Shown here: positions 1,733-24,909 of the stretch, one piece after another | How the letters are laid out: the number at the start of each line of letters is the position of its first letter | Numbering within the stretch: the stretch's first letter is position 1 | Virus record (IMG/VR): IMGVR_UViG_2602041671_000009 | Origin: a virus | Taxonomy: Duplodnaviria > Heunggongvirae > Uroviricota > Caudoviricetes | DNA: 26,300 nt | Reading direction: 5' to 3' (one strand) | Notes under the pieces: generated by a model | Databases searched by the model: none | Seen by the model: only the letters and a program-made list of their open reading frames with translations | Told to the model about the DNA's origin: nothing | Translations under genes and position numbers: made by a program

Positions 1733-1871
1733 TTAACCCCTTGTAATTCATCGCCATAATTGATTTAATTCACAAATAAAACTATAACATGGTGAAATTA
1801 ATGAAAAAAACACAGATGATGGGGCTAAAATTTACACACCACTTACCCTAAAGCTTTATGACTGGTGGGTT

Positions 1872-4142: not shown

Positions 4143-4237
4143 AATAATCTCGGTGTGAGATGCTTTACGTCTTCCAAGCCCCCTTCCTTGCCGTAAATGG
4201 AAAGATACATCTAATTATAGAATTTATATGTTTTACC

Positions 4238-5801: not shown

Positions 5802-5861
5802 TCCTCACGCTCCATAAATGACAAAACCGCCCGCAGGCGGTTTCACATAAAACATTTTGCA

Positions 5862-6533: not shown

Positions 6534-7174
6534 TTGTCGGTGTACCTCTCTCGTTTGCTCAGTTGTTCAGGAATATGGTGCAGCAGCTCGCCGTCGCCGC
6601 AGTAAATTGCGGCGTGATTCGGCACCGATGAACCAAAACAGCACAGCAGCACATCGCCCGGCTGTGCCGCTGACAACGGCACCTGATACAGCCCCGTCGC
6701 CTCCAGATTATCCAGATAGAGATTCTGGCCGTTACGCCACCAGTCATCCTCACGATGAAAGTCCGGCATCTCAATCCCCGCCAGATGATAAGCATCCCGG
6801 AACAGTGTGTAACAGTCCGTCACACCGTGCTCAAAGCGCCGCCCGGTGAGATGCGGCACACAGCGGAACTTATGAATCGTCCCCCGGCAGACCAGCCACC
6901 ACGGCAAATCACTCTGCACCTGCAGCCGCCGGTCGGCCTCACTCAGCCAGGGCAGACCACCGGGGTGGCTGTGGACCAGCGCCACAATCTCACCCTGCAT
7001 TTCTGCCTGCAGCCAGTCTTCCGGCGACATACGGAAATACGCCTCCGGCTCACCGGAAATATTCACGCAGGGAAAATATCTTTCCCCCTCCGGCGTGCTT
7101 ACCACGAAGCCGCACGACTCCGCTGGCGCACATCGCCGGGCGTGCGCCAGAATCGCTGATTCTGTCTCTGTCAT
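6431..7174 (-). CDS. K: tail tip assembly protein K (JAB/MPN plus NlpC/P60-like)
   Basis: ORF with E...HSHPGG...S..D JAMM-type motif and a downstream Cys-containing hydrolase-like region. Lambda gpK-like. An alternative internal start (MSPEDWLQ, about 7030) is possible. Confidence 0.8.
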   Translation of the reverse strand: MTETESAILAHARRCAPAESCGFVVSTPEGERYFPCVNISGEPEAYFRMSPEDWLQAEMQGEIVALVHSHPGGLPWLSEADRRLQVQSDLPWWLVCRGTIHKFRCVPHLTGRRFEHGVTDCYTLFRDAYHLAGIEMPDFHREDDWWRNGQNLYLDNLEATGLYQVPLSAAQPGDVLLCCFGSSVPNHAAIYCGDGELLHHIPEQLSKRERYTDKWQRRTHSLWRHRAWRASAFTGIYNDLVAASTFV

Positions 7175-7179
7175 GGGAT

Positions 7180-7877
7180 TTACTGCGAAAGTTTGTTAAT
7201 GGAAAGGAAGCCGCCAAAGTTGCCGACGTTATTGCGGAACTTACAACCGCTCAGGCATTTGCTGCATTTATCCTTCGTGATATCGGACGTTGGCTGGTCA
7301 TATTCATCCGCGACAGCCGGACCGCTATAACCGCACTCGTCACCGCGATAGGTCCAGGTGCAGGTGTTGGCCAGCATGATACGTCCCGGAAAACAGCGCC
7401 ATCCGTTTCCGTCGGCGTGGACAGTACAAAAGAGGCACTGACCGCGCTCAGTTCGCTGCACTGCTCAATGCGCCAGCGGCTGATCACCTCCTGCTCCGGA
7501 TCGGCGTCACTGTTTCCGTTGACGAAGTTCACCGCATCCAGAAAACGGGCATAAACCTTACGCCTGACCACCGTTCCGCCGACCAGACTCTGCAGATCTT
7601 CCGCCATCCCGGTGACCATGCCATACAGGTTAGAAACCGTCAGCGTGGGGCGCGTACTGGTGCCTTTGCCATTCAGTTCGAAACCACTCCCCTGAATGGG
7701 ATACGCCTGATACTGTCGCCCCTGCCAGGTGACCGGCTCACCTTTTTCGTTCTGCTCATTACAGAAAAAATAACGTTCTCCACCAACCTCTGTCAGATCG
7801 ATTTCCCAGAGCACCACGCTGGCCGACTGCTCCGCACGGGTGCATTCATTCAGTGTTTCCTGTCGGATATCCTGCAT
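7180..7877 (-). pseudogene. L: minor tail protein L, frameshifted
   Basis: ORF 7251-7877 matches lambda L through ...TETDGAVF and then diverges. ORF 7180-7461 in another frame carries the rest (PGRIMLANTCTWTYRGDECGYSG...FLSINKLSQ). Frames swap at the A4 run at 7390-7393 (T-run on the coding strand). Confidence 0.8.
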
Positions 7878-8206
7878 CAGTTCACCACCTGTTCAAACTC
7901 TGCGCTGAACTCAACACGCAGCATACTGACCCGCGACGACCATTTTGCGCAGGTCACCTTTATCTGCCGGTAGCCATAAGGCGGCGTCCACAGAAAGGCC
8001 TTCCAGCCCCCGTGCTCAGCCAGAAACGACTCCAGCGCCGCGGCCTCCCAACGGGGAACAGAAAGCGTCACGCTGTACGTTTTCAGGTCAGTGTTCAGCC
8101 CGGCAGGCGCTCGCTGGGAATAGCCATCACCAAAGCGCACCTTTCTTACGGAAGGGGCCGAAGCCACATCCATACCGGGTTTCACTTTCCAGCGGAAGGT
8201 TTTCAT
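7877..8206 (-). CDS. M: minor tail protein M
   Basis: 109-aa ORF, MKTFRWKVKPGMDVASAPSVRKVRFGDGYSQRAPAGL...RVSMLRVEFSAEFEQVVN, lambda gpM-like. ATGA overlap with the upstream frame. Confidence 0.88.
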   Translation of the reverse strand: MKTFRWKVKPGMDVASAPSVRKVRFGDGYSQRAPAGLNTDLKTYSVTLSVPRWEAAALESFLAEHGGWKAFLWTPPYGYRQIKVTCAKWSSRVSMLRVEFSAEFEQVVN

Positions 8207-8436
8207 CGTCCACCTCCGGAGAACAGACCACCATCGCGCATCTGCCCGGTCACAACATCCATTGCCGCCTTACGGGCTACGTCATAAACAGCCTTCAGCG
8301 CCTGTGGCCCTAGCTGGCGACGTTGTGCCGCCTCCTCCAGTACCGCGAACTGACTTTCTGCCTTCCACAAATCCCGGCGCTGCTGGCTGATTTTCTCATT
8401 TGCTCCGGCATGCTTCTCCAGCGTCCGGAGTAGCCG
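8203..8436 (-). pseudogene. probable tape-measure (H) 3' remnant
   Basis: Open frame without ATG ending ...MRDGGLFSGGGR with its TGA overlapping the M start (ATGA), as expected for the gene upstream of M. Assignment to H is by position and partial recollection only. Confidence 0.4.
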
Positions 8437-9094
8437 TTATCCGTATCCTGAGCCGTCTGCAGGTTCAGTGAGTCACCCGGCATCAGGTGCGGTACTTTTG
8501 CGCCTCCCAGCCGGACCGGCGCTGCGGCGTAATACGCGGCAATTTCACCAATCCAGCCGGTCAGCCTTTCCCGCTGCTCCTGACTGTTCGCGCCCAGAAT
8601 AAAATCCATCGCTGACTGCGTATCCAGCTCACTCTCAATGGTGGCGGCATACATCGCCTTCACAATGGCGCTCTGCAGCTGCGTGTTCTGCAGCGTGTCG
8701 AGCATCTTCATCTGCTCCATCACGCTGTAAAACACATTTGCACCGCGAGTCTGCCCGTCCTCCACGGGTTCAAAAACGTGAATGAACGAGGCGCGCCCGC
8801 CGGGTAACTCACGGGGTATCCATGTCCATTTCTGCGGCATCCAGCCAGGATACCCGTCCTCGCTGACGTAATATCCCAGCGCCGCACCGCTGTCATTAAT
8901 CTGCACACCGGCACGGCAGTTCCGGCTGTCGCCGGTATTGTTCGGGTTGCTGATGCGCTTCGGGCTGACCATCCGGAACTGTGTCCGGAAAAGCCGCGAC
9001 GAACTGGTATCCAGGTGGCCTGAACGAACAGTTCACCGTTAAAGGCGTGCATGGCCACACCTTCCCGAATCATCATGGTAACCGGCATATTCAC
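8428..9094 (-). pseudogene. B: portal protein B, fragmented (N-terminus missing, internal frameshift, 3' end lost)
   Basis: ORF 8720-9094 contains MMIREGVAMHAFNGELFVQATW and ORF 8310-8972 contains MVSPKRISNPNNTGDSRNCRAGVQIN...QTAQDTDNGYS, both matching internal lambda gpB. Frames swap at a GG run near 9011-9012. Only about 50 bp separate W from the first B fragment, so the B N-terminus is absent. Confidence 0.75.
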
Positions 9095-9145
9095 GCAGCG
9101 ATGTCATGCCGTCCGGCCCCAGAAGGGTGGGAATGGTGGACGTTT

Positions 9146-10824
<1,679 letters not shown>

Positions 10825-10850
<26 letters not shown>

Positions 10851-11370
10851 TCAGCAACCCCGGTATCAGTTCATCCAGCGCGGCTGCTTTGTTCATGGCT
10901 TTGATGATATCCCGTTTCAGGAAATCAACATGTCGGTTTTCCAGTTCCGGAAAACGCCGCTGCACCGACAGGGGGATCCCGTCGAGAATACTGGCAATTT
11001 CACCTGCGATCCGCGACAGCACGAAAGTACAGAATGCGGTTTCCACCACTTCAGCTGAGTCTCTGGCATTCTTCAGTTCCTGTGCGTCGGCCTGCGCACG
11101 CGTAAGTCGATGGCGTTCGTACTCAATAGTCCCTGGCTGGAGATCTGCCTCGCTGGCCTGGCGCAGTTCTTCAACCTCCCGGCGCAGCTTTTCGTTCTCA
11201 ATTTCAGCATCCCTTTCGGCATACCATTTTATAACGGCGGCAGAGTCATAAAGCACCTCATTACCCTTGCCACCGCCTCGCAGAACGGGCATTCCCTGCT
11301 CCTGCCAGTTCTGAATGGTACGGATACTCGCACCGAAAATGTCAGCCAGCTGCTTTTTGTTGACTTCCAT
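10825..11370 (-). CDS. Nu1: terminase small subunit Nu1
   Basis: 181-aa ORF, MEVNKKQLADIFGASIRTIQNWQEQGMPVLRGGGKGNEVLYDSAAVIKWYAERD..., lambda Nu1-like with N-terminal HTH; overlaps the A start. Confidence 0.88.
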
Positions 11371-11379
11371 TGTTCATTC

Positions 11380-11600
11380 CACGGCCAAAAACAGAGAAAG
11401 GAAACGACAAAGGCCCAAAAGTTCGTTTTCAGCACCTGTCGTTTCCTTTCTTTTCAGGGGGTATTTTAAATAAAAACATTAAGTTACGACGAAGAAGAAC
11501 GGAAACGCCTTAAACCGGAAAATTTTCATAAATAGCGAAAACCCGCGAGGTCGCCGCCCCGTAACCTGTCGGATCGCCGGAAAGGACCCGAAAAATGATA
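11380..11600 (-). other. cos region (cosB plus cosN cohesive-end site)
   Basis: Plus strand 11548-11559 reads AGGTCGCCGCCC, the reverse complement of the lambda 12-nt cohesive end GGGCGGCGACCT. It lies about 180 nt upstream of Nu1, as in lambda. Confidence 0.7.
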
Positions 11601-11758
11601 ATAATTATCATCTACATGTCACAACGTGCATCTACGCCATCAAACCACGTCAAATAATCAATTATGACGCAGGTATCGTATTAATTGATCTGCATCAACT
11701 TAACGTAAAAACAACTTCAGACAATACAAATCAGCGAAACTGAATACGGGGCAACCTC

Positions 11759-11953
11759 ATGTCAACGAAGAACAGAACCCGCAGAACAACAACCCGCAAC
11801 ATCCGTTTTCCTAACCAAATGATTGAACAAATTAACATCGCTCTTGATCAAAAAGGGTCCGGGAATTTCTCAGCCTGGGTCATTGAAGCCTGCCGTCGGA
11901 GGCTAACGTCAGAAAAGAGAGCATATACATCAATTAAAAGTGATGAAGAATGA
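11759..11953 (+). CDS. small hypothetical protein (YlcI-like, DLP12-type)
   Basis: 64-aa ORF, MSTKNRTRRTTTRNIRFPNQMIEQINIALDQKGSGNFSAWVIEACRRRL...; position between bor and Nu1 matches the DLP12 gene order as I recall it. Confidence 0.45.
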   Translation: MSTKNRTRRTTTRNIRFPNQMIEQINIALDQKGSGNFSAWVIEACRRRLTSEKRAYTSIKSDEE

Positions 11954-12117
11954 ACATCCCGCGTTCTTCCCTCCGAACAGGACGATATTGTAAATTCACT
12001 TAATTACGAGGGCATTGCAGTAATTGAGTTGCAGTTTTACCACTTTCCTGACAGTGACAGACTGCGTGTTGGCTCTGTCACAGGTTAAGTAGTTTGAATG
12101 ATTAGCAGTTATGGTGA

Positions 12118-12324
12118 TCAGTCAACCACCAGGGAATAATCCTTCATATTATTATCGTGCTTCACCAACGCTGCCTCAATTGCCCTGAATGCTTCCAGAG
12201 ACACCTTATGTTCTATACATGCAATTACAACATCAGGGTAACTCATAGAAATGGTGCTATTAAGCATATTTTTTACACGAATCAGATCCACGGAGGGATC
12301 ATCAGCAGATTGTTCTTTATTCAT
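12118..12324 (-). CDS. small hypothetical protein (YbcW-like)
   Basis: 68-aa ORF in an AT-rich moron segment; call is by size and position only. Confidence 0.4.
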
Positions 12325-12609
12325 TTTGTCGCTCCATGCGCTTGCTCTTCATCTAGCGGTTAAAATATTACTTCAAATCTTTCTGTATGAAGGTTTGAGC
12401 ACGTTGGCCTTACATACATCTGTCGGTTGTATTTCCCTCTAGAATGCCAGCAGGACCGCACTTTGTTACGCAACCAATACTATTAATTGAAAACATTCCT
12501 AATATTTGACATAAATCATCAACAAAACACAAAGAGGTCAGACCAGATTGAAGCGATAAAAACGATAATGCAAACTACGCGCCCTCGTATCACATGGAAG
12601 GTTTTACCA

Positions 12610-13309: not shown

Positions 13310-13603
13310 ATGAAAAAAATGCTACTCGCTACTGCGCTGGCCCTGCTTATTACAGGATGTGCTCAACAGACATTTACTGTTCAAAACAAACAGACAGCAG
13401 TAGCACCAAAGGAAACCATCACCCATCATTTCTTCGTTTCTGGAATTGGGCAGAAGAAAACTGTCGATGCAGCTAAAATTTGTGGCGGCGCAGAAAATGT
13501 TGTTAAAACAGAAACCCAGCAAACATTCGTAAATGGATTGCTCGGTTTTATTACTTTAGGCATTTATACTCCGCTGGAAGCGCGTGTGTATTGCTCAAAA
13601 TAA
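13310..13603 (+). CDS. bor: Bor lipoprotein (serum-resistance family)
   Basis: 97-aa ORF, MKKMLLATALALLITGC (lipobox) AQQTFTVQNKQTAVAPKETITHHFFVSGIGQKKTVDAAKICGG..., lambda Bor-like. Opposite strand to the lysis genes, as in lambda. Confidence 0.85.
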   Translation: MKKMLLATALALLITGCAQQTFTVQNKQTAVAPKETITHHFFVSGIGQKKTVDAAKICGGAENVVKTETQQTFVNGLLGFITLGIYTPLEARVYCSK

Positions 13604-14804: not shown

Positions 14805-15301
14805 AACCCCACCTCGCAGACAAAGCGGGTGTAAATTGAGGGAATACAACGTATCGCAAAAAAGCAGAAACGTAACTGACTCCGAGTCAGTGAATAACTC
14901 AGGTATTGAGTTATCAGCTAATATCGAGACTCAAAAAATGGAAAAACCAGCTCGACGGCGGGTTTAAGCTGTGTGACGAAGTAACCACTCTTAACAGCAT
15001 AACCAATTTTTTACGTACGTAAACCACTGAATGATATTTATGAGAATGCTACCGAGTGTTCAAAACATCACCACAAATACATAAGAAAACCTCAACAAAT
15101 AACCAATAAATAATTTCCAGTGTTATTTTTAGCCGGTTTAAATTAAATAGACGAATTATAGAACCACCATAAATAACAGCCATTAATATAAATTAGCTAA
15201 TAGATTTATTTTTGTTCAAATAAGAGCCATAAATAGGTTTCGATAGAAAAAGTTCAGATAAAAATAGAGATCTACTTCACAAATTAAATGAGAAACTAAA
15301 A

Positions 15302-15321
15302 CTTACATCTTGAAATAATCA
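15302..15321 (+). promoter_or_regulatory. possible OmpR-box-like element upstream of the porin gene
   Basis: CTTACATCTTGAAATAATCA resembles ompC-type OmpR sites (TTTACATTTTGAAACATCTA) as I recall them. Weak, pattern-based. Confidence 0.25.
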
Positions 15322-15391
15322 CATTGATTAGATGAATATTTATCGCGCAGTGACATCATTTTTTAATAATAGTTCAAAAAAAGGGCTCACG

Positions 15392-16489
15392 ATGAAAAAA
15401 TTAACAGTGGCAATTTCTGCTGTAGCTGCATCAGTACTGATGGCGATGTCTGCTCAGGCAGCTGAAATTTATAATAAAGACAGTAACAAGCTGGATCTGT
15501 ACGGGAAAGTTAATGCCAAGCACTACTTTTCCTCTAACGATGCAGATGATGGTGATACTACTTATGTTCGTCTGGGCTTCAAAGGCGAAACCCAAATCAA
15601 CGATCAGCTGACTGGTTTCGGTCAGTGGGAATATGAATTCAAAGGCAACCGCGCTGAATCTCAAGGTTCCTCCAAAGACAAAACCCGTCTTGCATTTGCA
15701 GGCCTGAAATTCGGTGACTACGGCTCAATCGATTACGGCCGTAACTACGGTGTAGCATACGACATCGGTGCGTGGACTGACGTTCTGCCAGAATTCGGTG
15801 GCGATACCTGGACCCAAACAGATGTGTTCATGACTGGTCGCACCACTGGTGTTGCAACCTATCGTAACAACGACTTCTTTGGTCTGGTTGATGGTCTGAA
15901 CTTTGCTGCTCAGTACCAAGGCAAAAACGATCGTAGCGATTTCGATAACTACACCGAAGGTAACGGTGATGGCTTCGGTTTCTCTGCTACCTATGAATAC
16001 GAAGGATTCGGTATCGGTGCAACTTATGCGAAATCTGATCGTACCGACACTCAAGTTAATGCAGGGAAAGTTCTTCCTGAAGTATTTGCTTCCGGTAAAA
16101 ATGCAGAAGTTTGGGCCGCAGGTCTGAAATATGACGCTAACAACATTTACCTGGCCACTACCTATTCTGAAACCCAGAATATGACTGTATTTGCTGATCA
16201 CTTCGTTGCTAATAAAGCTCAAAACTTCGAAGCTGTTGCACAATATCAGTTCGATTTCGGTCTGCGTCCGTCCGTTGCTTACCTGCAATCTAAAGGTAAG
16301 GATCTTGGAGTATGGGGCGATCAGGACTTAGTCAAATATGTTGATGTAGGTGCAACCTATTACTTCAACAAAAATATGTCTACTTTCGTTGATTACAAAA
16401 TCAACCTGCTTGACAAAAATGACTTCACTAAAGCACTCGGTGTAAGCACTGATGACATCGTTGCTGTAGGTCTGGTTTACCAGTTCTAA
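15392..16489 (+). CDS. OmpC-family general porin (prophage-encoded, NmpC/Lc-like)
   Basis: ATG at 15392 with AAGGG upstream. Signal peptide [23 protein letters not shown], mature N-terminus [18 protein letters not shown]-terminal ...VGLVYQF. The ORF-track start at 15332 adds a non-native N-extension. Confidence 0.88.
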
Positions 16490-16653
16490 TCTGATTACGA
16501 AAAAGATATGTTGCGGGAGGCGTTGCCTCCCCAACATATAAGTGGCTCCCTCAAGCCACTTCCTTTAGGAGCACAACCTTGCTTCTAACTATATAAACCT
16601 TCTGTTATATATTACCCTTTATTTTTGGGGGCGTTGCAACGCCCCATTTTTAA
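16490..16653 (+). ncRNA. possible IpeX-like sRNA / porin 3' UTR with intrinsic terminator
   Basis: Hairpin GGGAGGCGTTGCCTCCC just after the porin stop, and palindrome GGGGCGTTGCAACGCCCC at 16628-16645 followed by ATTTTTAAT. In DLP12 an sRNA is reported near the nmpC 3' end; assignment here is by position only. Confidence 0.3.
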
Positions 16654-16678
16654 TAACTTTCAGTAAACAATTGGCATA

Positions 16679-17062
16679 TTAATTAGAGTTATTAACAACG
16701 ATATCCATCTCTAACCGGATATCTAATGCCATTAACATCCCTTCAATTATGCCCTCAGCCTTCTGTAACCTTTTCCCGATATAACCATCAGAGCAGCAAT
16801 GCTTACCTGCCAGTGACATGAATGTCATACCGACTACATAATAATCTACTAATAAATCGTGCAAATCGCTGTTGTTCTTTTTCAGACGGGCCATGCACCC
16901 GCAAATGATCATCGCGTCATCGTCACAACATTGCGGGCGAGATTTTACTTTTGAAGGAATTAATCCCTTAAAACCGGCGGCAATGGACGACCAGGTCACA
17001 TCTTCATGATTATTAGCCGCCCACGCTCCCCAACGTTCAAGAACCATCTGAATATCACGCAT
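16679..17062 (-). CDS. Q: late antiterminator Q (QuuD-like)
   Basis: 127-aa product from ATG 17062 ([26 protein letters not shown]...CGCMARLKK...) with GGAG about 9 nt upstream. Note the frame is open upstream into the methyltransferase. Confidence 0.75.
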
Positions 17063-17797
17063 TAACTTTCTCCACAAAATCAGGCCAGCACACCAATCGC
17101 CAGTGCGCGATCGATAAAACGAAATATCAGCTCCAGCTGGGAGCCATGCCGCCATCTCCCTGACCAGTTTTTCCGCCTGCTGGCGAACCTGCGCCAGAAA
17201 GGCCTCACCACATGCCTCAAGTTCATCGCGCCCGATGTAGCTGATTGCCGGTCCCTTCCAGGTCTTGTCGAAAACAGCAATAGCACCAGCGAAGAAAGCG
17301 CCTGTCGGCACCTGCTTCTCGTCCTTCGGGATAAACCAGGCTGGCAGTTCAAAACCAATACGCCCGCGAATAAAAGCAATATGGTCTGCATCTTCCGGCC
17401 ACCAAACTTCGCTGGTGGCAGCTTTGATCAGGAAAACATAGCGCCCGCCTTTATCACGCATGGCACTGGCATGCTTCATGATGTAACGCATGCCGGTGAT
17501 GTATTGCCCCTCATGCTGACTGGCGCGGCTGTACGGGGGATTACCAAAGGCAGCACCTTTAAGCTCCGCAAGACGTTCTGACCAGTCATGCGCCAGCGCG
17601 TTGTCTTCCGCAGTGTAATAAGCGGCGCATTTGGCGTTATCACCATCAGTAAACAGATCCAGAACAAACGGGCCAAACAGGGTGTTAATTCCCCAGAAAA
17701 TGTTGTCCGGCGTGCGCCACTGATCGCCCACTTCCTTCAGTTCATGGGCTGGTTTGTTCCGCAGCTCCACCAGCGCCTGGCAATATTTATTACTCAT
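17063..17797 (-). CDS. phage Dam-like N6-adenine DNA methyltransferase, in-frame continuous with Q
   Basis: Product [72 protein letters not shown]...FGNPPYSR (NPPY amino-MTase motif). No stop codon separates it from the Q codons; ORF 16679-17830 is one 383-aa frame. Confidence 0.65.
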
Positions 17798-18291
17798 TAA
17801 GCCCCCACGTAATTCCCTGACAGATACCACTCTTCACCCGATGCAGCGCGCTTGCTGCTTTTCCGTAAACACCGCTCACGACGCGCAAGAAAATTGTTTC
17901 GCTCTTGCTGGGAGTGGCTTTCACGGAATGCCGCCATCCACACCGTTGCAGCACGACGGTATAAGCCCCTGGACTCCAGTTCTTCCGCCTGGCGGGTCAG
18001 GCACAAAATCACCCGGGGATCGTTAGTGCCGACATAGAAATTGCGCACAGGTCTGGATTCACGAACTGGTTGCGGTTCCGGCTCCTGCGGTATCTCAGTT
18101 AGCCGCGGGAAATGTCTGCGTGTATCCCCTTCACAACGGTGAGCCACACGCCCACTCTGACGTAACTTGCTTGCTGACTGCAGAACGCGCTGTCGTGAGT
18201 AACCTGCAAAAGCATCCGCAATGTCTCCGGAAGTACACCCCGGATGGGCTTCAATGAATTTCTGAACGTCATTCAAAAGACTCATGATCAC
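17797..18291 (-). CDS. hypothetical early protein (YfdN-like; PerC-like C-terminal motif)
   Basis: 164-aa ORF, translationally coupled on both sides. C-terminal [18 protein letters not shown]...[13 protein letters not shown] resembles PerC-family motifs. Confidence 0.4.
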
Positions 18292-18641
18292 CCCCTGAAT
18301 CCTGCCGGGATCTGGCTGTAGTCCACGTTGTCGTAACTGGCTTTGAAGTACGGGTCTTCGCGTTTTTCGGTGTACGTGCTGACGGACGGCGATAAGCGCA
18401 GGGAAAGCTCATCCCATTTTTCCCGCAGCTTCGACGGGCTGAGCACGTTACGGCACCAGAACGGATCGCGACTGACGCGGCTGTACATCTCGCAGATTTG
18501 TTTATGAGTACGACCATCCTGCACACACATCAGGCGAATTTCGTTTGCCCAGGCTGTCCAGTTCGGTTCTTTGGGACGAACCACCTCGCCGTCACATTCG
18601 GCGGCATGCTCGTACAGGGCGATGATTTTTTCCAGAGCCAC
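18288..18641 (-). CDS. hypothetical protein, possibly a detached C-terminal part of the replication initiator (YfdO-like)
   Basis: 117-codon frame beginning at GTG 18641, only 10 nt downstream of the initiator stop; no motif recognised. Confidence 0.35.
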   Translation of the reverse strand: MALEKIIALYEHAAECDGEVVRPKEPNWTAWANEIRLMCVQDGRTHKQICEMYSRVSRDPFWCRNVLSPSKLREKWDELSLRLSPSVSTYTEKREDPYFKASYDNVDYSQIPAGFRG

Positions 18642-18651
18642 TGTGCGCAGG

Positions 18652-19227
18652 TCAAATCATCCTGTGTCCCCCACTGGCGCTTTTTAGGCTGAATACAACC
18701 GCATCAGGATGGCGAGTTAAAAAATCCTGTTCAGCCGTCTGCGTGTCCGGTTGCGAAGAGTCCGGACGAGAAGGTTTTTTATCTGACGGATCATGTTTTG
18801 ATTTTACTGACGGATCCCCGCCAGATTCTGACGGGTGAAAACCCGCTTTTTTGCCAGATTTCGACGCATCAAATTTTGACGGGTCAGATTTTGATGCGTC
18901 AGATTTTGACGGGTCAGAATCTGACAGTTGAGAAAATGCCGCTGCCTGAAGCTTCGCAACGTTAAGCTGATAAACATTCGACGCATTGCGGTTACCCTGG
19001 CGACGCGCCTTACGCGTTAACCAGCCTTCTGCTTCCAGCCGTGCGATAGCCGTTCTGACGGTACTCATCCCCGCGCCAATCTGGCGGGCAATGGTTTCAA
19101 TCGATGGCCAGCACACACCTTCGTCATTACTGAAATCAGCCAGGCGGGCCATAATTGCCACGCTGGATAATTTCATGCCTGACGCTGCGCAACCATCCCA
19201 TACATAGCCGGTTAATTTAGTGCTCAT
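18652..19227 (-). CDS. replication initiator-like protein (N-terminal winged-HTH), iterons within the coding sequence
   Basis: 191-aa ORF with HTH segment WPSIETIARQIGAGMSTVRTAIARLEAEGWLTRKARR, followed by a low-complexity DPSKSDASKSDPSKFDASKSG linker encoded by tandem DNA repeats. Confidence 0.55.
   Translation of the reverse strand: MSTKLTGYVWDGCAASGMKLSSVAIMARLADFSNDEGVCWPSIETIARQIGAGMSTVRTAIARLEAEGWLTRKARRQGNRNASNVYQLNVAKLQAAAFSQLSDSDPSKSDASKSDPSKFDASKSGKKAGFHPSESGGDPSVKSKHDPSDKKPSRPDSSQPDTQTAEQDFLTRHPDAVVFSLKSASGGHRMI
18784..18931. repeat. iteron-like direct repeats (putative prophage ori)
   Basis: About eight copies of a TGACGG(G/A)TCA-containing unit. The last four are spaced 14-16 bp apart (ATTTTGACGGGTCAG / ATTTTGATGCGTCAG / ATTTTGACGGGTCAG / AATCTGACAGTTGAG). 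Confidence 0.55.
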
Positions 19228-19236
19228 GACCGACCT

Positions 19237-19575
19237 CTATTTCCCTGAATTTACGACGAAACTGTTCGAGCGGACTGAAGCACTCATGCTCATAGCCTTC
19301 GCGGAGGTAGATAACCCGTTGTGTTTCCGGTTCCCAACGAATGACTCTGACGGGCACTCCGTAGTGATCTTTGAACCAGCGGTTAACTTGTCGCAAAGGA
19401 CTGTCTCCTTCTGCCGGTTGAAATCCCCCACAGCCCACTCTGCAAAGCTGTGGGTTACAATTTCCCTGTCACCTGGTACATTCACTGCATAGCAATATTC
19501 CACCTTCGCTTTTCCACCCGGTACAGGAAGCGCAATCAGTTGCGAGCGACGGTAGTGTGTTGTTAAACTGTTCAT
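19237..19575 (-). CDS. hypothetical early protein (possibly frameshifted; overlaps a second frame at 19217-19438)
   Basis: 112-codon ORF with ATGA coupling to the upstream gene. A second overlapping 73-codon frame also looks protein-like, so an indel is possible. Confidence 0.3.
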
Positions 19576-20141
19576 GCGTTAGTTTCTCCACAACCAGAAG
19601 CAATCGACGCCACGACGCCCGGAGCTGCACACTCGCGGGCGTCATTACTTTCTGAAATGCAAAAGATTTTGTAGACCAGTGCTGCATGCTCCTGCAGCTT
19701 CGAAATTGAGAGATACAGCTCGTCGTTAATTGCTGTCTTCTCATGCGGTTCCACTACACCGTCTTCGATTGCTGAACGAATCTGTTTTGAATAACTGCCG
19801 ATCTGTTCAATGACTTCCAGCAGACGCTGGTTAATATCGGCGTTGTCCACATCCTCGACGTCAGGAAGCGACACAAAGACGCCATTTGCAGACTGCGCCA
19901 CAGCATCAGCAATGAAGTGAGTGCCACCAGCACGCTGTAAAACCATTGCCCATCCCAGCGGGAAAATCTGATCGCCATCTGCACGAAGGCGGTTGAATAA
20001 AGCGTTTTCTGTTACATCGAGCCAGTCAGCCGCTTCAGCGTAACCACCCGGCAACGCCGCGATAGTTTTTCTGACAGCTTTCACGTACCACTCAGGCTGT
20101 TTTTCTATTTTCCAGTGATGCTTACCCACGATTAGCCTCAT
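19572..20141 (-). CDS. hypothetical early regulator at the cII position (possibly YdaT-family)
   Basis: 189-aa ORF immediately downstream of the cro-like gene; no motif recognised with confidence. Confidence 0.35.
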
Positions 20142-20172
20142 CGTTCTGTGGTTAAAAATTGAAAGTGTTCTG

Positions 20173-20373
20173 CTAATCTTTCGGATAGATATCCGGTCTT
20201 AAGTCAGATTTCGTAATTGCACCTGACGTGCATTGCTCAAGTTTTTTAGCCAGCACAAAACTGGCTTTTTTATAGCCATTGAAAACCAGCCGTAAGTAGC
20301 CAGGTGTTGAGCCAACTTTTCCGGCCAACTCGCCCTGCTGTTCTTTGGTTAAAGAGTCCCAATACGCTTTCAT
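20173..20373 (-). CDS. cro: Cro-like / YdaS-family HTH regulator
   Basis: 66-aa product from ATG 20373 (MKAYWDSLTKEQQGELAGKVGSTPGYLRLVFNGYKKASFVLAKKLEQCTSGAITKSDLRPDIYPKD) with GGAGG upstream; divergent from the repressor gene. The longer ORF-track frame to 20676 would overlap cI. Confidence 0.65.
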   Translation of the reverse strand: MKAYWDSLTKEQQGELAGKVGSTPGYLRLVFNGYKKASFVLAKKLEQCTSGAITKSDLRPDIYPKD

Positions 20374-20463
20374 ACAATATGTACCTCCGGTGTACATATT
20401 ACATGATTGAAATGAACCTTCAAGATACTTGTACCTTAACGGTACAAGGGTTTTAATTTCGTT
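20374..20463. promoter_or_regulatory. divergent cI/cro control region with palindromic operators
   Basis: Perfect inverted repeat CTTGTACC-TTAAC-GGTACAAG at 20428-20448 and near-perfect CAATATGTAC-(7 nt)-GTACATATTA at 20375-20401; both are built on TGTAC half-sites. Confidence 0.55.
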
Positions 20464-21138
20464 ATGAAAACAATCCATGACATCCGGCGGTCTAACGCCA
20501 GAAAACTGAGAGATGGTGTTGGAGGGAATTCTTCCTTTGCCACTATGATTGATCGCGAGCCAACCCAGACCAGCAGGTTTATGGGAGATGGTGCTACTAA
20601 AAATATCGGTGACAGCATGGCACGACACATCGAAAAATGTTTCGACCTGCCTGTCGGATGGCTCGATCAAGAACACCAGACAACGAACATCACAAAAAAA
20701 CCTGATGTTTCAATCACTAATAAACAAATCACATTAGTCCCTGTCATATCATGGGTACAGGCCGGAGCATGGAAAGAAGTTGGATATTCTGAGGTTGATT
20801 TGAGCACAGCAGAAACGTATCCCTGCCCTGTACCCTGTGGGGAAATGACTTATATCTTGCGGGTGATAGGTGATTCAATGATTGATGAGTACCGCCCGGG
20901 AGACATGATTTTTGTCGATCCTGAAGTACCTGCCTGCCACGGTGACGACGTTATTGCATTGATGCACGATACAGGTGAAACCACCTTCAAAAGGTTGATA
21001 GAAGATGGGACACAGCGTTATCTCAAAGCGTTAAACCCAAACTGGCCTGAGCCTTACATTAAGATCAACGGTAATTGCTCTATAATTGGAACTGTGATTT
21101 TCTCAGGAAAACCAAGAAGATACAAAATCAAAGCCTAA
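20464..21138 (+). CDS. cI: CI-type prophage repressor (HTH plus S24 LexA-like peptidase domain)
   Basis: 224-aa ORF with N-terminal HTH and C-terminal GDSM (Ser) ... FSGK (Lys) autocleavage dyad; essentially no SD before the ATG. Confidence 0.8.
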   Translation: MKTIHDIRRSNARKLRDGVGGNSSFATMIDREPTQTSRFMGDGATKNIGDSMARHIEKCFDLPVGWLDQEHQTTNITKKPDVSITNKQITLVPVISWVQAGAWKEVGYSEVDLSTAETYPCPVPCGEMTYILRVIGDSMIDEYRPGDMIFVDPEVPACHGDDVIALMHDTGETTFKRLIEDGTQRYLKALNPNWPEPYIKINGNCSIIGTVIFSGKPRRYKIKA

Positions 21139-21150
21139 TCAATGTTTATG

Positions 21151-21174
21151 AACCTGCTTCGGCAGGTTTTTTAT
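21151..21174 (+). terminator. intrinsic terminator downstream of cI
   Basis: AACCTGC-TTCG-GCAGGTT hairpin followed by a T-run, 13 nt after the cI stop. Confidence 0.65.
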
Positions 21175-21176
21175 AC

Positions 21177-21209
21177 TTGACAATGTACCTATGAGATACA
21201 TAATGTACC
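21177..21209 (+). promoter_or_regulatory. sigma70-like promoter with operator-like ATGTACC repeats (candidate pL-equivalent)
   Basis: TTGACA (21177-21182), 16-bp spacer, CATAAT (21199-21204). Heptamer ATGTACC at 21183-21189 and 21203-21209 shares the TGTAC core with the cI/cro operators. Confidence 0.5.
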
Positions 21210-21351
21210 CAAGAGAAACAACAAACAGGCAGGACGCCCACGAAGTAGCCGCCTGGGGCATATGAAGTCCAGGATGATTCGTTAGCAACAAAAAAGCGCC
21301 CTACAGGACGCTTAGCTCTTTAACAATCTGGATATCCACAACAGTAGTAAT

Positions 21352-21843
21352 CTACAGATTGCCGTTAAGTTTTCTGGACAACTCCTCAATGGATGGAGGC
21401 GATACGTAATCCGGATTTTTATTCATCAGAAACTTATTTTCACAGTGGAGGCACCTGCTTTTATGAAAAAGCTCATCTTCGCTAACCGGGAATGGTTGAA
21501 GTATCGATACTATCTTTTGTCCAAAACATTTTGGGCAAAGATGCATGGTTATGCTGCCACCGTTCACGATTACCTCCTTCGAGTATACAAAAGTACCCGA
21601 CTCAAGTTGGTTAAGGATATAGCCTTCCGTCTGAGCCTCAAAGTTTTCGAATTCTGCAATTTTAGCTTTGAGAGAAGCATTTATTTCTTGATAAGAGCCC
21701 ACCAGTTCAACGAGAGACACGCATTCGCGCTGAATAGACGCAAGCTTTGAGTTCAGCTCACCAATAGCCGCATTTACTTCAGCTTGAGTTTTTGCCTCGT
21801 TCATTAGTTTTGCAATCTGGGCTGTTTCACGAATAGCCGTCAT
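21352..21843 (-). CDS. hypothetical coiled-coil protein with C-terminal CxxC...CxxC zinc-ribbon-like motif
   Basis: 163 aa from ATG 21843 (MTAIRETAQIAKLMNEAKTQAEVNAAIGELNSKLASIQRE...CPKCFGQ...CLHCENK...). Convergent with cI; weak RBS, and the frame is open upstream so the start is uncertain. Confidence 0.45.
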   Translation of the reverse strand: MTAIRETAQIAKLMNEAKTQAEVNAAIGELNSKLASIQRECVSLVELVGSYQEINASLKAKIAEFENFEAQTEGYILNQLESGTFVYSKEVIVNGGSITMHLCPKCFGQKIVSILQPFPVSEDELFHKSRCLHCENKFLMNKNPDYVSPPSIEELSRKLNGNL

Positions 21844-21881
21844 TGCTGCCGTTAATTCAGCGATCACATTGAATACTCTTA

Positions 21882-21927
21882 TTGTTGTTGGGGATATCCA
21901 GATTAACCGAATCCTTGTTGTTGGGGA
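21882..21927. repeat. two direct copies of TTGTTGTTGGGGA(A/T)AT(A)ACCA, 33 bp apart
   Basis: Copies at 21882-21894 and 21915-21927, just upstream of the minus-strand orphan gene start. Confidence 0.55.
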
Positions 21928-22154
21928 ATAACCAGGTCCACCTCGCCTGATGTGGCTAAAAGCAGGCACATAACAGCTAAGTATTTTCAACCAGAGAGAA
22001 TCCTTAGCGTTGTGGTGAATGCGGCTCAGCGCACGCGGGTTAAGGTTGAGGCTGACAGTCGACCTTCTGTGGATACCCACCCGCCTGGTGTGCAACCTTC
22101 GCCAGGCACCGGGAGGCACCCGGCACCACAACTTTATGCTGTGTGTAGTCCTGG

Positions 22155-22198
22155 CGGTACCAGCTTGTACCCTTGCTTCCGGCTGGTACCGTCCTTTT
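22155..22198 (+). terminator. strong hairpin plus T-run (intrinsic-terminator-like) in the GC-rich leader
   Basis: CGGTACCAGC (22155-22164), 17-nt loop, GCTGGTACCG (22182-22191), then TCCTTTTTA. Confidence 0.45.
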
Positions 22199-22336
22199 TA
22201 CAAAACAGAGAAGAGCATCACCGGACGACGGGCTCATAACCCAATCCATCCGGGCGGCGGCCACCACAGGTGTTCTTCTCTGTTTTGTGGAGAAACTAAT
22301 CGGCCTTGCAGGGTCGATATGATGAGGAGCAGCAAA

Positions 22337-22699
22337 ATGGCTAGCGAACGCAGTACTGATGTGCAGGCATTTATCGGGGAGCTGGACGGCGGCGTATTTG
22401 AAACCAAAATCGGCGCAGTTCTCAGTGAAGTCGCTTCCGGTGTGATGAACACGAAAACCAAAGGTAAGGTCTCACTCAACCTGGAAATCGAACCATTTGA
22501 TGAGAACCGTGTGAAAATCAAACACAAACTCTCTTATATTCGCCCGACTAACCGCGGGAAAATTTCCGAAGAAGACACCACCGAAACGCCGATGTATGTC
22601 AATCGCGGTGGTCGCCTGACTATTCTGCAGGAAGACCAGGGACAATTACTGACTCTTGCCGGTGAACCTGACGGAAAACTCCGCGCAGCAGGTCGTTAA
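22337..22699 (+). CDS. hypothetical early-left protein (YfdP-like, 120 aa)
   Basis: ATG 22337 preceded by GAGGAG about 9 nt upstream. The ORF-track frame starts further upstream (22019) across the GC-rich leader and is probably not translated from there. Confidence 0.5.
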   Translation: MASERSTDVQAFIGELDGGVFETKIGAVLSEVASGVMNTKTKGKVSLNLEIEPFDENRVKIKHKLSYIRPTNRGKISEEDTTETPMYVNRGGRLTILQEDQGQLLTLAGEPDGKLRAAGR

Positions 22700-22764
22700 T
22701 ATCGTTCGTAATAAACTGATTATTTATCTCATCACTGAATATCTTTATATAGTGAGGACTTATT

Positions 22765-23589
22765 ATGTCTCAGAACTTAGACGCAACCGCAATTAATCAA
22801 ATCCATGCCCTTATTTCTGCTCAGGGTGTTAATGAAATTATCAGTAAGATTGGTGCCGATGCTGTGGCATTGCCTGAGAATTTCCGCATTCATGATCTGG
22901 AAAAATTTAATTTAAATCGCTTCCGTTTCCGTGGTGCACTTTCCACTGCCAGCATCGATGATTTTACCCGTTATTCTAAAGATCTTGCAGATGAAGGCAC
23001 CCGCTGCTTTATCGATGCCGATAATATGCGTGCCGTCAGTGTGCTTAACCTGGGTACTATTGATGAGCCAGGTCACGCAGATAACACTGCCACTCTCAAA
23101 CTGAAAAAGACAGCACCGTTCTCTGCTCTGTTGTCTGTTAACGGCGAGCGTAACTCCCAGAAGTCACTGGCAGAATGGATCGAAGACTGGGCCGACTACC
23201 TTGTGGGCTTTGATGCTAATGGTGACGCCATTCAAGCAACAAAAGCGGCTGCGGCAGTCCGTAAAATCACGATTGAAGCAAACCAGACCGCTGATTTTGA
23301 AGATAATGACTTCAGCGGCAAACGCTCCCTGATGGAGTCTGTCGAAGCGAAGACCAAAGACATTATGCCAGTGGCATTTGAATTTAAATGCGTTCCGTTT
23401 GAAGGTCTGAAAGAACGTCCGTTTAAATTACGCCTCAGCATTATCACTGGCGATCGTCCTGTACTGGTTCTGCGCATTATTCAGCTGGAAGCGGTGCAGG
23501 AAGAAATGGCTAACGAATTTCGTGATCTGCTTGTTGAGAAATTCAAAGACAGCAAAGTAGAAACCTTTATTGGTACTTTCACCGCCTGA
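22765..23589 (+). CDS. hypothetical early-left protein (YfdQ-like, 274 aa)
   Basis: Clean 274-aa ORF with an AT-rich RBS region; size and neighbours match the CPS-53 yfdQ context as I recall it. Confidence 0.55.
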
Positions 23590-23716
23590 TTTCATTACTG
23601 CAAATGCCCCTGCGGGGGCATTTATGGAAACGTAATTAACTCAATAATCACCGGATGGTGAGGGCTTCCTTTTACCAGAATTCAGCGCGGTGCAGTGCAT
23701 ATACGTGGAGAACAAA

Positions 23717-24253
23717 ATGTCATTTATTAAAACTTTTTCCGGGAAGCATTTTTATTATGACAAGATAAATAAAGACGACATCGATATTAACGATATCGCG
23801 GTTTCCCTTTCAAATATCTGTCGCTTTGCCGGTCATCTTTCGCACTTCTACAGCGTCGCCCAACATGCGGTTCTTTGCAGCCAGCTGGTGCCGCAGGAAT
23901 TTGCTTTTGAAGCGTTAATGCATGATGCAACAGAAGCGTATTGCCAGGACATTCCCGCACCACTGAAACGCCTTCTTCCTGACTATAAACGGATGGAAGA
24001 AAAAATAGACGCCGTAATCCGTGAGAAATACGGGTTACCCCCAGTTATGAGTACACCCGTGAAATATGCCGATCTCATCATGCTGGCAACCGAACGCCGC
24101 GATCTCGGGCTTGATGATGGCTCTTTCTGGCCTGTACTGGAAGGCATCCCGGCAACAGAGATGTTCAACGTGATTCCACTGGCACCGGGTCATGCCTACG
24201 GGATGTTTATGGAACGTTTTAACGATTTATCGGAGTTACGCAAATGCGCATGA
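23717..24253 (+). CDS. HD-domain phosphohydrolase (YfdR-like 5'-deoxynucleotidase family)
   Basis: 178 aa from ATG 23717 with H...HD-type metal-binding residues (HFYSVAQHAVLCS, EALMHDATEAY). Confidence 0.6.
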   Translation: MSFIKTFSGKHFYYDKINKDDIDINDIAVSLSNICRFAGHLSHFYSVAQHAVLCSQLVPQEFAFEALMHDATEAYCQDIPAPLKRLLPDYKRMEEKIDAVIREKYGLPPVMSTPVKYADLIMLATERRDLGLDDGSFWPVLEGIPATEMFNVIPLAPGHAYGMFMERFNDLSELRKCA

Positions 24254-24606
24254 ATGTTTTCGAAATGGAAGGGTTTCTTCGCGGGAAATGTGTACTGCGA
24301 GATCTGAAAGTGAACGAAACAAATGCTGAGTACCTGGTACGTAAATTCGACGCGCTTGAAGCTAAATGTGCGGCACTGGAAAACAAAATAATACCAGTGT
24401 CAGCTGAACTGCCACCAGCAAATGAAAGTGTTCTGTTATTTGATGCTAATGGAGAAGGCTGGCTGATTGGCTGGCGTTCTCTCTGGTACACCTGGGGACA
24501 AAAAGAAACCGGAGAATGGCAGTGGATATTTCAGGTCGGGGACCTTGAAAACGTCAATATCACTCACTGGGCAGTAATGCCAAAAGCACCGGAGGCTGGA
24601 GCATAA
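24244..24606 (+). CDS. hypothetical protein (YfdS-like, DUF551-type C-terminus)
   Basis: 120-aa ORF overlapping the upstream stop; C-terminal ...NITHWAVMP motif. Confidence 0.5.
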   Translation: MRMNVFEMEGFLRGKCVLRDLKVNETNAEYLVRKFDALEAKCAALENKIIPVSAELPPANESVLLFDANGEGWLIGWRSLWYTWGQKETGEWQWIFQVGDLENVNITHWAVMPKAPEAGA

Positions 24607-24836
24607 TGACCACATTTACCAATAAAGAACTGATTAAAGAAATCAAAGAACGAATCAGCAGCCTAGAGGTTCGAGACGATATTGAGCGCCGTGCTTATGA
24701 AATCGCACTCGTATCTCTGGAAGTAGAGCCAGATGAACGCGAAGCCTATGAATTATTCATGGAAAAGCGTTTCGGTGACTTAGTAGATCGTCGGAGAGCA
24801 AAAACGGCGATAACGAATACATGGCATGGGATATGA
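24606..24836 (+). CDS. small hypothetical protein (76 aa)
   Basis: ATG overlapping the upstream stop; charged, helical-looking product. Confidence 0.4.
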   Translation: MTTFTNKELIKEIKERISSLEVRDDIERRAYEIALVSLEVEPDEREAYELFMEKRFGDLVDRRRAKTAITNTWHGI

Positions 24837-24909
24837 CTCTCGGTTGGATCGTCTGGCAGCAACGAGCTGGTATCCATTTTTCAACAATGACACAGCAAGA
24901 GGTGAAATA

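Follow-up and report, generated by a model that had tools for sequence, protein, structure and literature searches.

The 1874-bp segment at positions 14805-16678 very probably represents the porin moron (lc/nmpC) known from lambdoid prophages of the DLP12/PA-2 type. By this reading, the self-contained unit of 1.68 kb (about 15024-16701) lies between the antiterminator gene Q and the late promoter pR', outside the late transcript. The window analyzed here is the whole 26,300-nt stretch of viral DNA to which the segment belongs (IMG/VR record IMGVR_UViG_2602041671_000009). The Lc/NmpC porin and the IpeX tail of such E. coli prophages have already been described, and the porin, the tail and their effects have been in the literature since 1985-2006; the segment holds no new biology. 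The present analysis identified the genes, assessed how far the sequence is conserved and located the pR' module as a unique copy, while the activity of IpeX and the regulators of the porin promoter (PnmpC) are taken from the literature. The main elements are as follows.

15392-16489, plus strand: porin gene (lc/nmpC allele), 365 aa, with the signal peptide at 15392-15460
17062-16679, minus strand: Q antiterminator (quuD type), 127 aa plus stop, Pfam PF06530
14804-14589, minus strand: class II (phage 21-type) holin/antiholin, Pfam PF04971, with a second start at 14795
15023-14987, minus strand: predicted late promoter pR' of the Q family, with the -35 hexamer TTTACG (15023-15018) inside the palindrome TTTACGTACGTAAA, a 16-nt spacer, the -10 hexamer TATGCT (15001-14996) and a predicted +1 near 14989
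14971-14942, minus strand: leader hairpin with a T-run at about +44 to +48, a putative tR'-like first terminator
16490-16656, plus strand: porin 3' UTR, an IpeX-homologous RNA of 167 nt with five hairpins
16628-16651, plus strand: intrinsic terminator of the porin/IpeX transcript (GGGGCG-loop-CGCCCC followed by ATTTTT), found by both terminator scan and folding
16506-16539, no strand given: GC-rich hairpin A, followed on the minus strand by CUUUUUCG (16507-16503)

The mechanically called reading frame of the porin begins at 15332; the true start is the ATG at 15392, as in PA-2 lc. The protein matches Pfam Porin_1 (521 bits) and the NCBIfam OmpC subfamily (528 bits, cut-off 484), and a PDB search returned OmpC and OmpK36 as the closest solved structures (E about 1e-136, residues 24-365). 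It is identical to PA-2 Lc at 362 of 365 residues. We thus have a full-length 16-strand porin of the OmpC/OmpF family with a signal peptide, nearly identical to Lc and encoded at the location typical of the Lc/NmpC (OmpD-like) general porins, between Q and the lysis genes of a lambdoid prophage and on the opposite strand. This bears out the first-pass annotation, which had recognized an intact OmpC-family porin moron on the strand opposite to Q and the holin gene.

Among the closest described counterparts is lc of phage PA-2 (J02580; Blasband, Marcotte and Schnaitman 1986). By alignment, the 1874-bp region is 97.7% identical to that record, and the two share the neighbors (lysis genes, with Rz, on one side), the CRP annotations, the signal peptide and the spacer. 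They differ by three amino-acid changes, by a short diverged patch in the distal upstream region near 15146-15170 and by the loop of the terminator hairpin, which is TTGCAA in the window and TCTCAA in PA-2. The region is also common in the host: at a coverage of at least 80% it is present in 2466 of 5426 complete E. coli genomes, and the share of complete E. coli genomes that have the block is about 46%. DLP12 (qsr') of K-12 is found at the same place in the chromosome, between intD and tRNA-Arg at one end and ompT at the other, and has the same order of quuD, spacer, nmpC, pR', essD, rrrD, rzpD and bor. The K-12 nmpC gene is interrupted by IS5 after codon 346, whereas the copy in the window is intact. 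In K-12 DLP12, moreover, a stretch of 16 bp is missing from the pR' leader, whose hairpin is perfect, unlike that of the window, and the early and nin regions of the window prophage differ from those of DLP12 and are partly deleted.

The antiterminator belongs to the Q21 family (Pfam PF06530, 181 bits, E = 8.5e-54). Its sequence is 99-100% identical to phage and prophage QuuD proteins, 79% to Q of the Stx phage 933W and 83% to Q of an E. coli/Shigella relative (locus L097). An assignment of QuuD to the phage 82-type Q proteins was dropped in view of the Pfam match. A longer reading frame of 383 aa (17830-16679) represents a pseudo-fusion of Q with a truncated MTase and DUF968. Against both 933W and L097, homology of Q stops at residue 120 (near 16701), after 'LEMD', and this end marks the Q-side junction of the inserted porin unit.

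Several properties of the unit are those of a moron. It is missing from otherwise collinear relatives, in which its neighbors are adjacent; it has its own terminator according to the terminator scan, and its promoter has been mapped in K-12 on a nearly identical sequence. Its base composition is deviant, as the GC fraction falls to 0.25-0.29 in the regulatory region against about 0.5 in the flanks. Like the lambda morons bor and lom, it adds a prophage-expressed outer-membrane protein gene with its own promoter and terminator (bor itself is found in the window at 13310-13603). Unlike bor and lom, it has a regulatory RNA in the 3' UTR and parts Q from its DNA target site.

The position of that target site decides how the locus is to be read. 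The promoter module, TTTACGWWCGTAAAA-N-TAnnnT-GWTAAGAGT, occurs once in the window, at 15023-14987 on the minus strand, with 0 copies expected by chance. In 109 of 123 loci the module is likewise single and always on the Q strand. Its complete family form, TTTACG, 16 nt and TATnnT, followed by a conserved leader and a hairpin with a T-run, is found here at 15023-14942 (minus strand). The module of the window aligns with the annotated pR' of 933W, which overlaps the end of Q in that phage. Across seven genera (Escherichia, Shigella, Trabulsiella, Citrobacter, Pantoea, Xenorhabdus and Providencia), about 24 relatives have the module roughly 10-140 nt beyond the Q stop codon. By comparison, in 79 of 81 related viral contigs and phage records with the present Q allele (the set searched comprised 80 IMG/VR contigs, phage PhiR29_1 and phage 434) it lies 1.6-1.7 kb after Q, beyond the porin, and the same placement is seen in PA-2 and K-12 DLP12. 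No copy of the module is present directly downstream of Q in the window; the only one is 1.66 kb from the Q stop, past the porin. Direct alignment of 933W with the region immediately after Q revealed no homology, and similarity resumes only beyond the porin. In two relatives (L097 and L098), Q, pR' and a holin gene 86% identical to ours succeed one another in the same orientation, uninterrupted by a porin. Since the module normally follows Q and here lies past the porin, the porin unit was inserted between Q and pR'. The porin is therefore not inside the late operon, where the first-pass annotation had placed it, as the conserved module is on the holin side of the gene.

The predicted pR' start is 185 nt upstream of the holin gene, the first late gene (records identical to this holin are annotated essD or S). 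Within this leader the window has a hairpin followed by U5 at +44 to +48. A hairpin with a U-run is present at +43 to +63 in 20 of 27 aligned family members and at +32 in one more, with stems of differing sequence. The stem of the K-12 allele is perfect (CCCGC/GCGGG), whereas the alleles of the window and PA-2 contain a C.U mismatch, and the terminator scan detected no strong terminator between pR' and the holin gene. The promoter, the start sites and termination in the window are predictions made from the sequence. When the +1 of 933W is estimated in the same way, an RNA of 258 nt from it would end where the annotated second terminator ends, in agreement with the length of StxS (PMC7547250).

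The Q/pR'/tR' cassette of 933W, with the StxS leader RNA, is another close counterpart. Its promoter module (TTTACG, 16-nt spacer, TATCAT, GATAAGAGTGGTTAC, CCCGCC hairpin with a T-run) is one that it has in common with the window. There, however, the module extends over the end of Q, and the morons of 933W (tRNAs and stx) are downstream of pR', inside the late transcript, whereas the moron of the window is upstream of pR' and outside it. Phage 21, the structural paradigm of the Q21 family, shares the Pfam family PF06530, and the lysis genes of the window are also of the phage 21 type (PF04971 holin). Its Q is, however, only distantly related (phmmer E = 7.6e-8, residues 8-87). The Q-binding element (QBE) of phage 21 is a TGAGCA direct repeat in the promoter spacer (PMC6606751), whereas the invariant promoter-spacer element in the family of the window is the palindrome TTTACGWWCGTAAA.

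Downstream of the porin stop codon, a highly structured spacer of 189 nt separates the gene from Q. Alignment revealed only five differences between this tail and the nmpC-quuD spacer of K-12 DLP12 (the IpeX locus), with PA-2 also close, and the region from the stop codon to the T-run spans 16490-16651/16656. The suggestion in the first-pass annotation of an IpeX-type position 3' of the porin thus held up. So did its two GC-rich hairpins: both were recovered by folding, and that at 16628-16645, with its T-run at 16647-16651, was also reported by the terminator scan. Folding of 16490-16656 (plus strand) gave hairpins at 16506-16539, 16540-16561, 16565-16588, 16590-16611 and 16628-16645 and a minimum free energy of -62.4 kcal/mol (z = -8.0; 0 of 200 shuffled sequences folded as well). 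The IpeX element is carried by 2495 of 5426 complete E. coli genomes. Rfam contains no IpeX family or model, and the sole Rfam match in the window, IS009, is elsewhere. According to a review (PMC12197685), IpeX is 167 nt long and is processed out of the porin transcript.

Among 23 spacer variants, the terminator at 16628-16651 keeps its stems while its loops vary. Hairpin A could serve on the minus strand as a terminator for transcripts coming from Q; some alleles have only 4 U after it, and one compensatory change (A-T to G-C) was found among the variants. Canonical pairing in the IpeX region is kept in 1162 of 1182 cells for the plus strand and in 1143 of 1182 for the minus strand. As to G.U versus C.A changes, four pairs favor the plus strand and three the minus strand. 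The variation among these sequences is too shallow to prove the RNA structure or to separate the strands.

On the other side of the porin gene, the GC fraction is 0.25-0.29 across 15000-15400 and about 0.45-0.55 in the flanks. The AT-rich upstream DNA noted earlier is therefore real, and its role as the porin regulatory region is supported. The following sites have been proposed within it or near it.

15310-15347, plus strand: putative porin promoter core, with the -35 hexamer TTGAAA (15310-15315), an 18-nt spacer, the -10 hexamer GAATAT (15334-15339) and a start G at 15345 or 15347
15264-15284, plus strand: proximal CRP site according to the PA-2 annotation (feature 1363-1383, mapped by alignment)
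14969-14989, no strand given: distal 'CRP site' of the PA-2 record, at the same place as the conserved first transcribed stretch of pR' (GAGTGGTTACTTCGTCACACAG)
15302-15321, plus strand: OmpR-box candidate of the first-pass annotation, matching ompC C1 at 14 of 20 positions and overlapping the putative porin -35 hexamer
15375-15351, minus strand: sigma-E-like motif GAACTA-16 nt-TCACT, antisense to the porin 5' UTR

In K-12, as described in one publication (PMC11677980), PnmpC was mapped by 5' RACE to a start site 'G' and a sigma-70 promoter within -199 to -1 of the ATG; it is activated by CRP and repressed by OmpR, IHF and MprA. The exact hexamers given above are our own reading of the sequence and are to be taken as probable; K-12 has the very same core, and PA-2 departs from it at a single position in the spacer. 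The proximal CRP site is centered about 72 bp upstream of the putative porin start. With two mismatches to TGTGA-N6-TCACA, it does not exceed chance in pattern counts on the sequence itself. The ompC-like OmpR box fared no better, its 14/20 match being indistinguishable from chance by sequence (in a simulated AT-rich region of 542 bp, P is 0.26 when C1 is considered by itself and 0.78 when any of six OmpR boxes may match). The window has five sites at this level of match to ompC C1. Tandem 20-bp OmpR boxes of the ompC/ompF type were not found upstream of the -35 hexamer, the single 14/20 match being the one that overlaps it.

Taken with the published data, this arrangement suggests the following course of events. 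In the lysogen, the porin would be transcribed from its own plus-strand promoter, and IpeX would be released as the 167-nt 3' UTR and lower the synthesis of host OmpC and OmpF, so that the phage porin would take their place. Q-dependent late transcription would begin near 14989 on the minus strand, at the pR' module (15023-14987), cross the tR'-like hairpin (14971-14942) and enter the holin gene at 14804, heading away from the porin. In lytic growth, early rightward transcripts that run past Q could still pass antisense through the porin.

According to the first-pass annotation, the late transcript antiterminated by Q has no choice but to cross the porin in antisense over about 1.1 kb, a claim that presumed a pR' beside Q. 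In that case pR' and qut would be in the 189-nt Q-porin spacer, and Q-modified polymerase would cross the porin and then the AT-rich region on its way to the holin gene. The general lambdoid rule does put pR' after Q; moreover, the minus-strand hairpin 16539-16506 with its following CUUUUUCG can be read as a tR', and the loop variants of the 16628-16645 hairpin are all TTGnnn on the minus strand. We nevertheless consider this arrangement extremely unlikely. The sole copy of the family module is the distant one, and porin-free relatives have Q, module and holin gene in direct order. A promoter scan and hand inspection of the spacer found no sigma-70 promoter with acceptable spacing (the best candidate found by hand, TTGCAA-19 nt-TAATAT, was rejected for its spacing). 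A resemblance of TAATAT-GCC-AATTGTTT (16681-16665, minus strand) to the pause features of phage 82 pR' is void because Q belongs to PF06530 and not to the Q82 family. A different source of lysis-gene transcription is suggested by published work on DLP12, which places the lysis operon under a Q-type antiterminator and RpoE, with a regulatory fragment from -121 to +650 (PMC7918800). If the lysis genes were driven mainly by the sigma-E promoter 'essDp' rather than by a sigma-70 pR', the transcript might start at the sigma-E-like motif 15375-15351, within the porin 5' UTR on the antisense strand, and reach the holin gene after about 540 nt. The motif may, speculatively, be 'essDp' itself, and the nmpC/essD spacer of K-12 is a 'promoter island' with reported specific H-NS binding. 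Yet six occurrences of the motif pattern against 2.4 expected make a weak signal, and its location within the inserted porin unit rules the motif out as the ancestral late promoter. The module conserved across genera, in turn, has hexamers of the sigma-70 type. We regard a mainly sigma-E-driven lysis operon as improbable, while such a transcript could coexist with the preferred pR' at 15023-14987 in a cryptic prophage.

The tail of the porin gene also admits other readings. The hairpins between the porin and Q might mainly form a back-to-back pair of terminators that insulates convergent transcripts, with IpeX being a stable by-product of overexpression that has no native regulatory role. The plus-strand terminator at 16628-16651 and the possible minus-strand one at 16539-16503 would fit such a pair, and IpeX was reportedly found as a multicopy suppressor (by Castillo-Keller, in 2006). 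In addition, the review mentioned above (PMC12197685) states that complementarity to ompC does not account for the action of IpeX. A pure insulator is nonetheless hard to reconcile with three more conserved hairpins between the two terminators, with variable positions being less frequent among paired (14/104) than unpaired (15/63) sites of the tail, and with those published accounts that credit repression of OmpC and OmpF both to IpeX and to transcription of PA-2 lc; we find it unlikely. In a further reading, morons of the opposite strand would settle repeatedly in the Q-pR' gap of this Q family, and the porin unit may be more than cargo. Any transcript leaving Q, which would stop at hairpin 16539-16503, would have a 3' untranslated end that finds its full complement in the IpeX tail. 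Porin/IpeX RNA of the lysogen and Q read-through RNA made upon induction could therefore titrate or destroy each other. If true, this would tie the repression of host porins to the lysis-lysogeny state; we consider it quite unlikely.

Under the preferred reading, with pR' beyond the porin and IpeX active, the element amounts to lysogenic conversion of the cell surface, as the prophage brings a porin and the RNA tail of the same transcript lowers the major porins of the host. In close to half of the E. coli sequenced, such a swap bears on permeability, on the entry of antibiotics and on phage receptors. For annotators, the late promoter of QuuD/933W-type prophages is recognizable by a conserved 37-bp signature, and in porin-carrying prophages it should be placed on the holin side of the porin. 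Models in which the late transcript silences nmpC by collision or antisense RNA consequently start from the wrong map.

The published DLP12 lysis-promoter work, with its RpoE-dependent 'essDp', counts against the preferred pR'. Opposite-strand cargo in the Q-pR' gap was also observed at a Citrobacter braakii locus, which has three antisense ORFs, and in phage ev087, which has blc and a ybgA-like gene.

The 13.3-17.1 kb portion of the window represents the late-control region of a lambdoid prophage, with the following genes.

17062-16679, minus strand, Q antiterminator (quuD type)
15332-16489, plus strand, 385-codon ORF holding the porin gene
14804-14589, minus strand, holin of the phage 21 type, ATG at 14804
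14589-14092, minus strand, lysozyme
minus strand, spanin
13310-13603, plus strand, bor

Over 25 kb, the window matches the chromosome of E. coli O104:H21 strain 94-3024 at 99.9% identity; there the prophage occupies the DLP12 site, flanked by intD and tRNA-Arg at one end and by ompT at the opposite end. The prophage is decayed, with truncated genes for the large terminase subunit, portal, J and one tail fibre (window 1-12500 and 17800-26300), and related genomes have a version about 17 kb longer. In a 383-aa ORF (16679-17830, minus strand), a Dam-type N6-adenine methyltransferase (TIGR01712, residues 25-208) is in frame with Q via a DUF968 remnant. We rejected a fusion protein: RefSeq annotates two pseudogene fragments and an intact quuD in the identical genome, and the ORF is therefore a deletion scar. 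The sole Rfam match in the window is a full-length IS009 (RF02111; 4272-4470, minus strand, 226.7 bits) within the tail-fibre assembly region.

The porin gene is complete, on the strand opposite to Q and the holin, as the first-pass annotation had it. Its true start is the ATG at 15392 (365-aa precursor), also annotated for lc in the phage PA-2 record, and the protein belongs to the OmpC family (Porin_1, 521 bits; NCBIfam OmpC subfamily, 528 bits; E ~1e-136 to OmpC/OmpK36 in PDB). The 1874-bp region 14805-16678 is 97.7% identical to that of PA-2 (GenBank J02580, a 1986 record), and the porin differs from Lc at 3 of 365 residues. In the phage collection, 434B is about 95% identical, and its IS5-interrupted nmpC region is the same as that of K-12 DLP12. 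Among 5426 complete E. coli genomes, 2466 carry at least 80% of the region, as do 36 phage records, several from phages grown on laboratory hosts. The element is thus the well-known Lc/NmpC porin with the small RNA IpeX; the observation is correct but already known. What is added here is solely an explicit placement of pR', the Q-dependent late promoter, and a signature by which promoters of this Q family can be recognised.

The Pfam scan assigned Q to the Q21 family (PF06530) rather than the Q82 family; it is 79% identical to Q of the Stx phage 933W. Pause features of phage 82 had been fitted to DNA just past Q and were dropped once PF06530 was assigned. Relatives of Q, collected from one genome per species, share a highly conserved module that comprises TTTACG within the palindrome TTTACGWWCGTAAA, a 16-nt spacer, TATnnT, the leader GWTAAGAGTGGTnAC...CAC..GCTTA and a GC hairpin followed by a T-run. 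Its start lies some 10-140 nt past the Q stop in about 24 loci (Escherichia, Shigella, Trabulsiella, Citrobacter, Pantoea, Xenorhabdus and Providencia). A hairpin with a U-run lies at +43 to +63 in 20 of 27 aligned members, the stem sequences being different, and at +32 in one more. In 933W the same module carries the pR' annotation and overlaps the Q end; with +1 set seven bases past the -10 element, 258 nt lead to the end of the second terminator annotated there, in agreement with the length published for the StxS leader RNA (PMC7547250).

The -35 hexamer lies within a 14-bp perfect palindrome (TTTACG-TA/AT-CGTAAA; 15010-15023), which is invariant or nearly so in the 27 sequences of the pR' module alignment (columns 13-27), and both centre variants keep it palindromic. 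Such a conserved promoter spacer is unusual. In this subfamily the palindrome may serve as the Q-binding element; phage 21 has direct TGAGCA repeats instead.

The window contains exactly one copy of the module, with none expected by chance, at 15023-14987 (minus strand), followed by a hairpin with a T-run (14971-14942) and then the holin ATG. We predict that this is pR' of Q. PA-2 and K-12 DLP12 have the module at the same place; of 81 related viral contigs and phage records that share this Q allele, 79 have it beyond the porin, 1.6-1.7 kb past Q. This position argues strongly against a pR' directly past Q, the assumption of the first-pass annotation and at first our own. E. coli ECMA0423 and one genome of Shigella flexneri have, in this order, Q, the module and an 86%-identical holin but no porin. 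Homology of Q to its relatives ends at residue 120, which puts the Q-side junction of the insert near 16701; the other would be near 15024, just upstream of the pR' -35 element. Judged by sequence comparison, the porin, its promoter and IpeX are a 1.68-kb moron inserted between Q and the predicted DNA target of Q.

The first-pass annotation placed the porin inside the late operon, crossed antisense by the late transcript. However, the only module copy is on the holin side, and that placement is judged mistaken. The predicted porin promoter and pR' point away from each other, with about 290 bp between them, and the Q-dependent transcript would run away from the porin gene, so that the map does not imply a 1.1-kb antisense read-through. 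Antisense transcription by early transcripts running past Q is possible. Lysis genes might also be served by a second, non-exclusive promoter: in the literature as far as it is summarised in PMC7918800, the DLP12 lysis promoter is controlled by RpoE as well as by Q. A sigma-E-like motif (GAACTA-16 nt-TCACT; 15375-15351, minus strand), antisense to the porin 5' UTR and nearly back to back with the inferred porin start, could be the RpoE-dependent 'essDp', although by pattern it is a weak candidate. The predicted pR' would stand beside it.

The distal 'CRP site' of the PA-2 record (14969-14989) falls exactly on the initial transcribed region of pR' (GAGTGGTTACTTCGTCACACAG), which is conserved across seven genera beside Q genes without a porin. 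The same region makes up a small inverted repeat (GTGG..TCAC; in Xenorhabdus GTGATA..TGTCAC). The site is more likely to belong to the leader or the Q-utilisation sequence than to regulate the porin. Leader alleles differ at 14947-14962: K-12 has a perfect CCCGC/GCGGG hairpin, whereas in the window and in PA-2 it contains a C.U mismatch (GCTGG). A stretch of 16 bp (GTATCGCAAAAAAGCA, ~14851-14866), which in the window supplies the T-run past a palindrome at 14876-14892, is also missing from K-12.

The gap between Q and pR' looks like a repeated insertion site. In Citrobacter braakii (L103, 2890-5228) it holds three opposite-strand ORFs of 345, 106 and 132 aa; in phage ev087 (L005, 2878-4756), an opposite-strand blc lipocalin and a same-strand ybgA-like gene precede a variant module (TTTACAATCGTAAAA). 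Antisense to the porin of the window are long ORFs of 187 aa (15725-16288) and 69 aa (16328-16537, 'ORF1' of the PA-2 record), both on the minus strand and probably artefacts of porin codon bias.

Upstream of the porin, the AT-rich stretch noted earlier was confirmed (GC 0.25-0.29 across 15000-15400). We read the putative core promoter as TTGAAA (15310-15315), an 18-nt spacer and GAATAT (15334-15339), with a start at 15345 or 15347. The proposed OmpR box (15302-15321) overlaps this -35 element and would therefore suit a repressor. Its match carries little weight: against what we take to be the ompC C1 box it scores 14/20, a level reached by five sites in the window and by chance with P = 0.26 in a simulated AT-rich stretch of equal length. 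Between the proximal CRP site and the ATG, only a few positions differ from K-12 and PA-2. A 2024 study (PMC11677980) located the K-12 nmpC start at a G using 5' RACE and found transcription to be driven by the 199 bp that precede the ATG; the regulators it lists are CRP (two sites) as activator, OmpR, IHF and MprA as repressors, and a small RNA that acts on the leader. The K-12 nmpC-essD spacer is a published 'promoter island', for which specific binding by H-NS is reported. The regulatory suggestions of the first-pass annotation are plausible but already published.

The 189-nt spacer between the porin and Q stops is the ipeX locus, as its position had suggested; it differs from K-12 DLP12 at five positions, and 2495 of 5426 genomes have it, almost always flanked by quuD and the porin. 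IpeX, a 167-nt RNA of DLP12 and PA-2, is made from the porin promoter and processed from the porin transcript (reviews; PMC12197685), and it lowers OmpC and OmpF (reviews). A search of Rfam for IpeX found that no model exists. The 167 nt 3' of the porin stop fold into five hairpins (z = -8.0), the last of which (16628-16645, then a T-run) was also found by the terminator scan, in agreement with the GC hairpins described earlier. The span between stop codon and T-run (16490-16651/16656) is compatible with 167 nt. Variation among 23 variants is shallow and lower at paired positions (14 of 104) than at unpaired ones (15 of 63). Within it, a single compensatory change (A-T to G-C) favours the spacer hairpin at 16506-16539, and wobble-type changes do not tell the strands apart (four pairs favour plus, three minus). 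On the minus strand, CUUUUUCG follows this hairpin (16539-16506), which may stop early transcripts running past Q.
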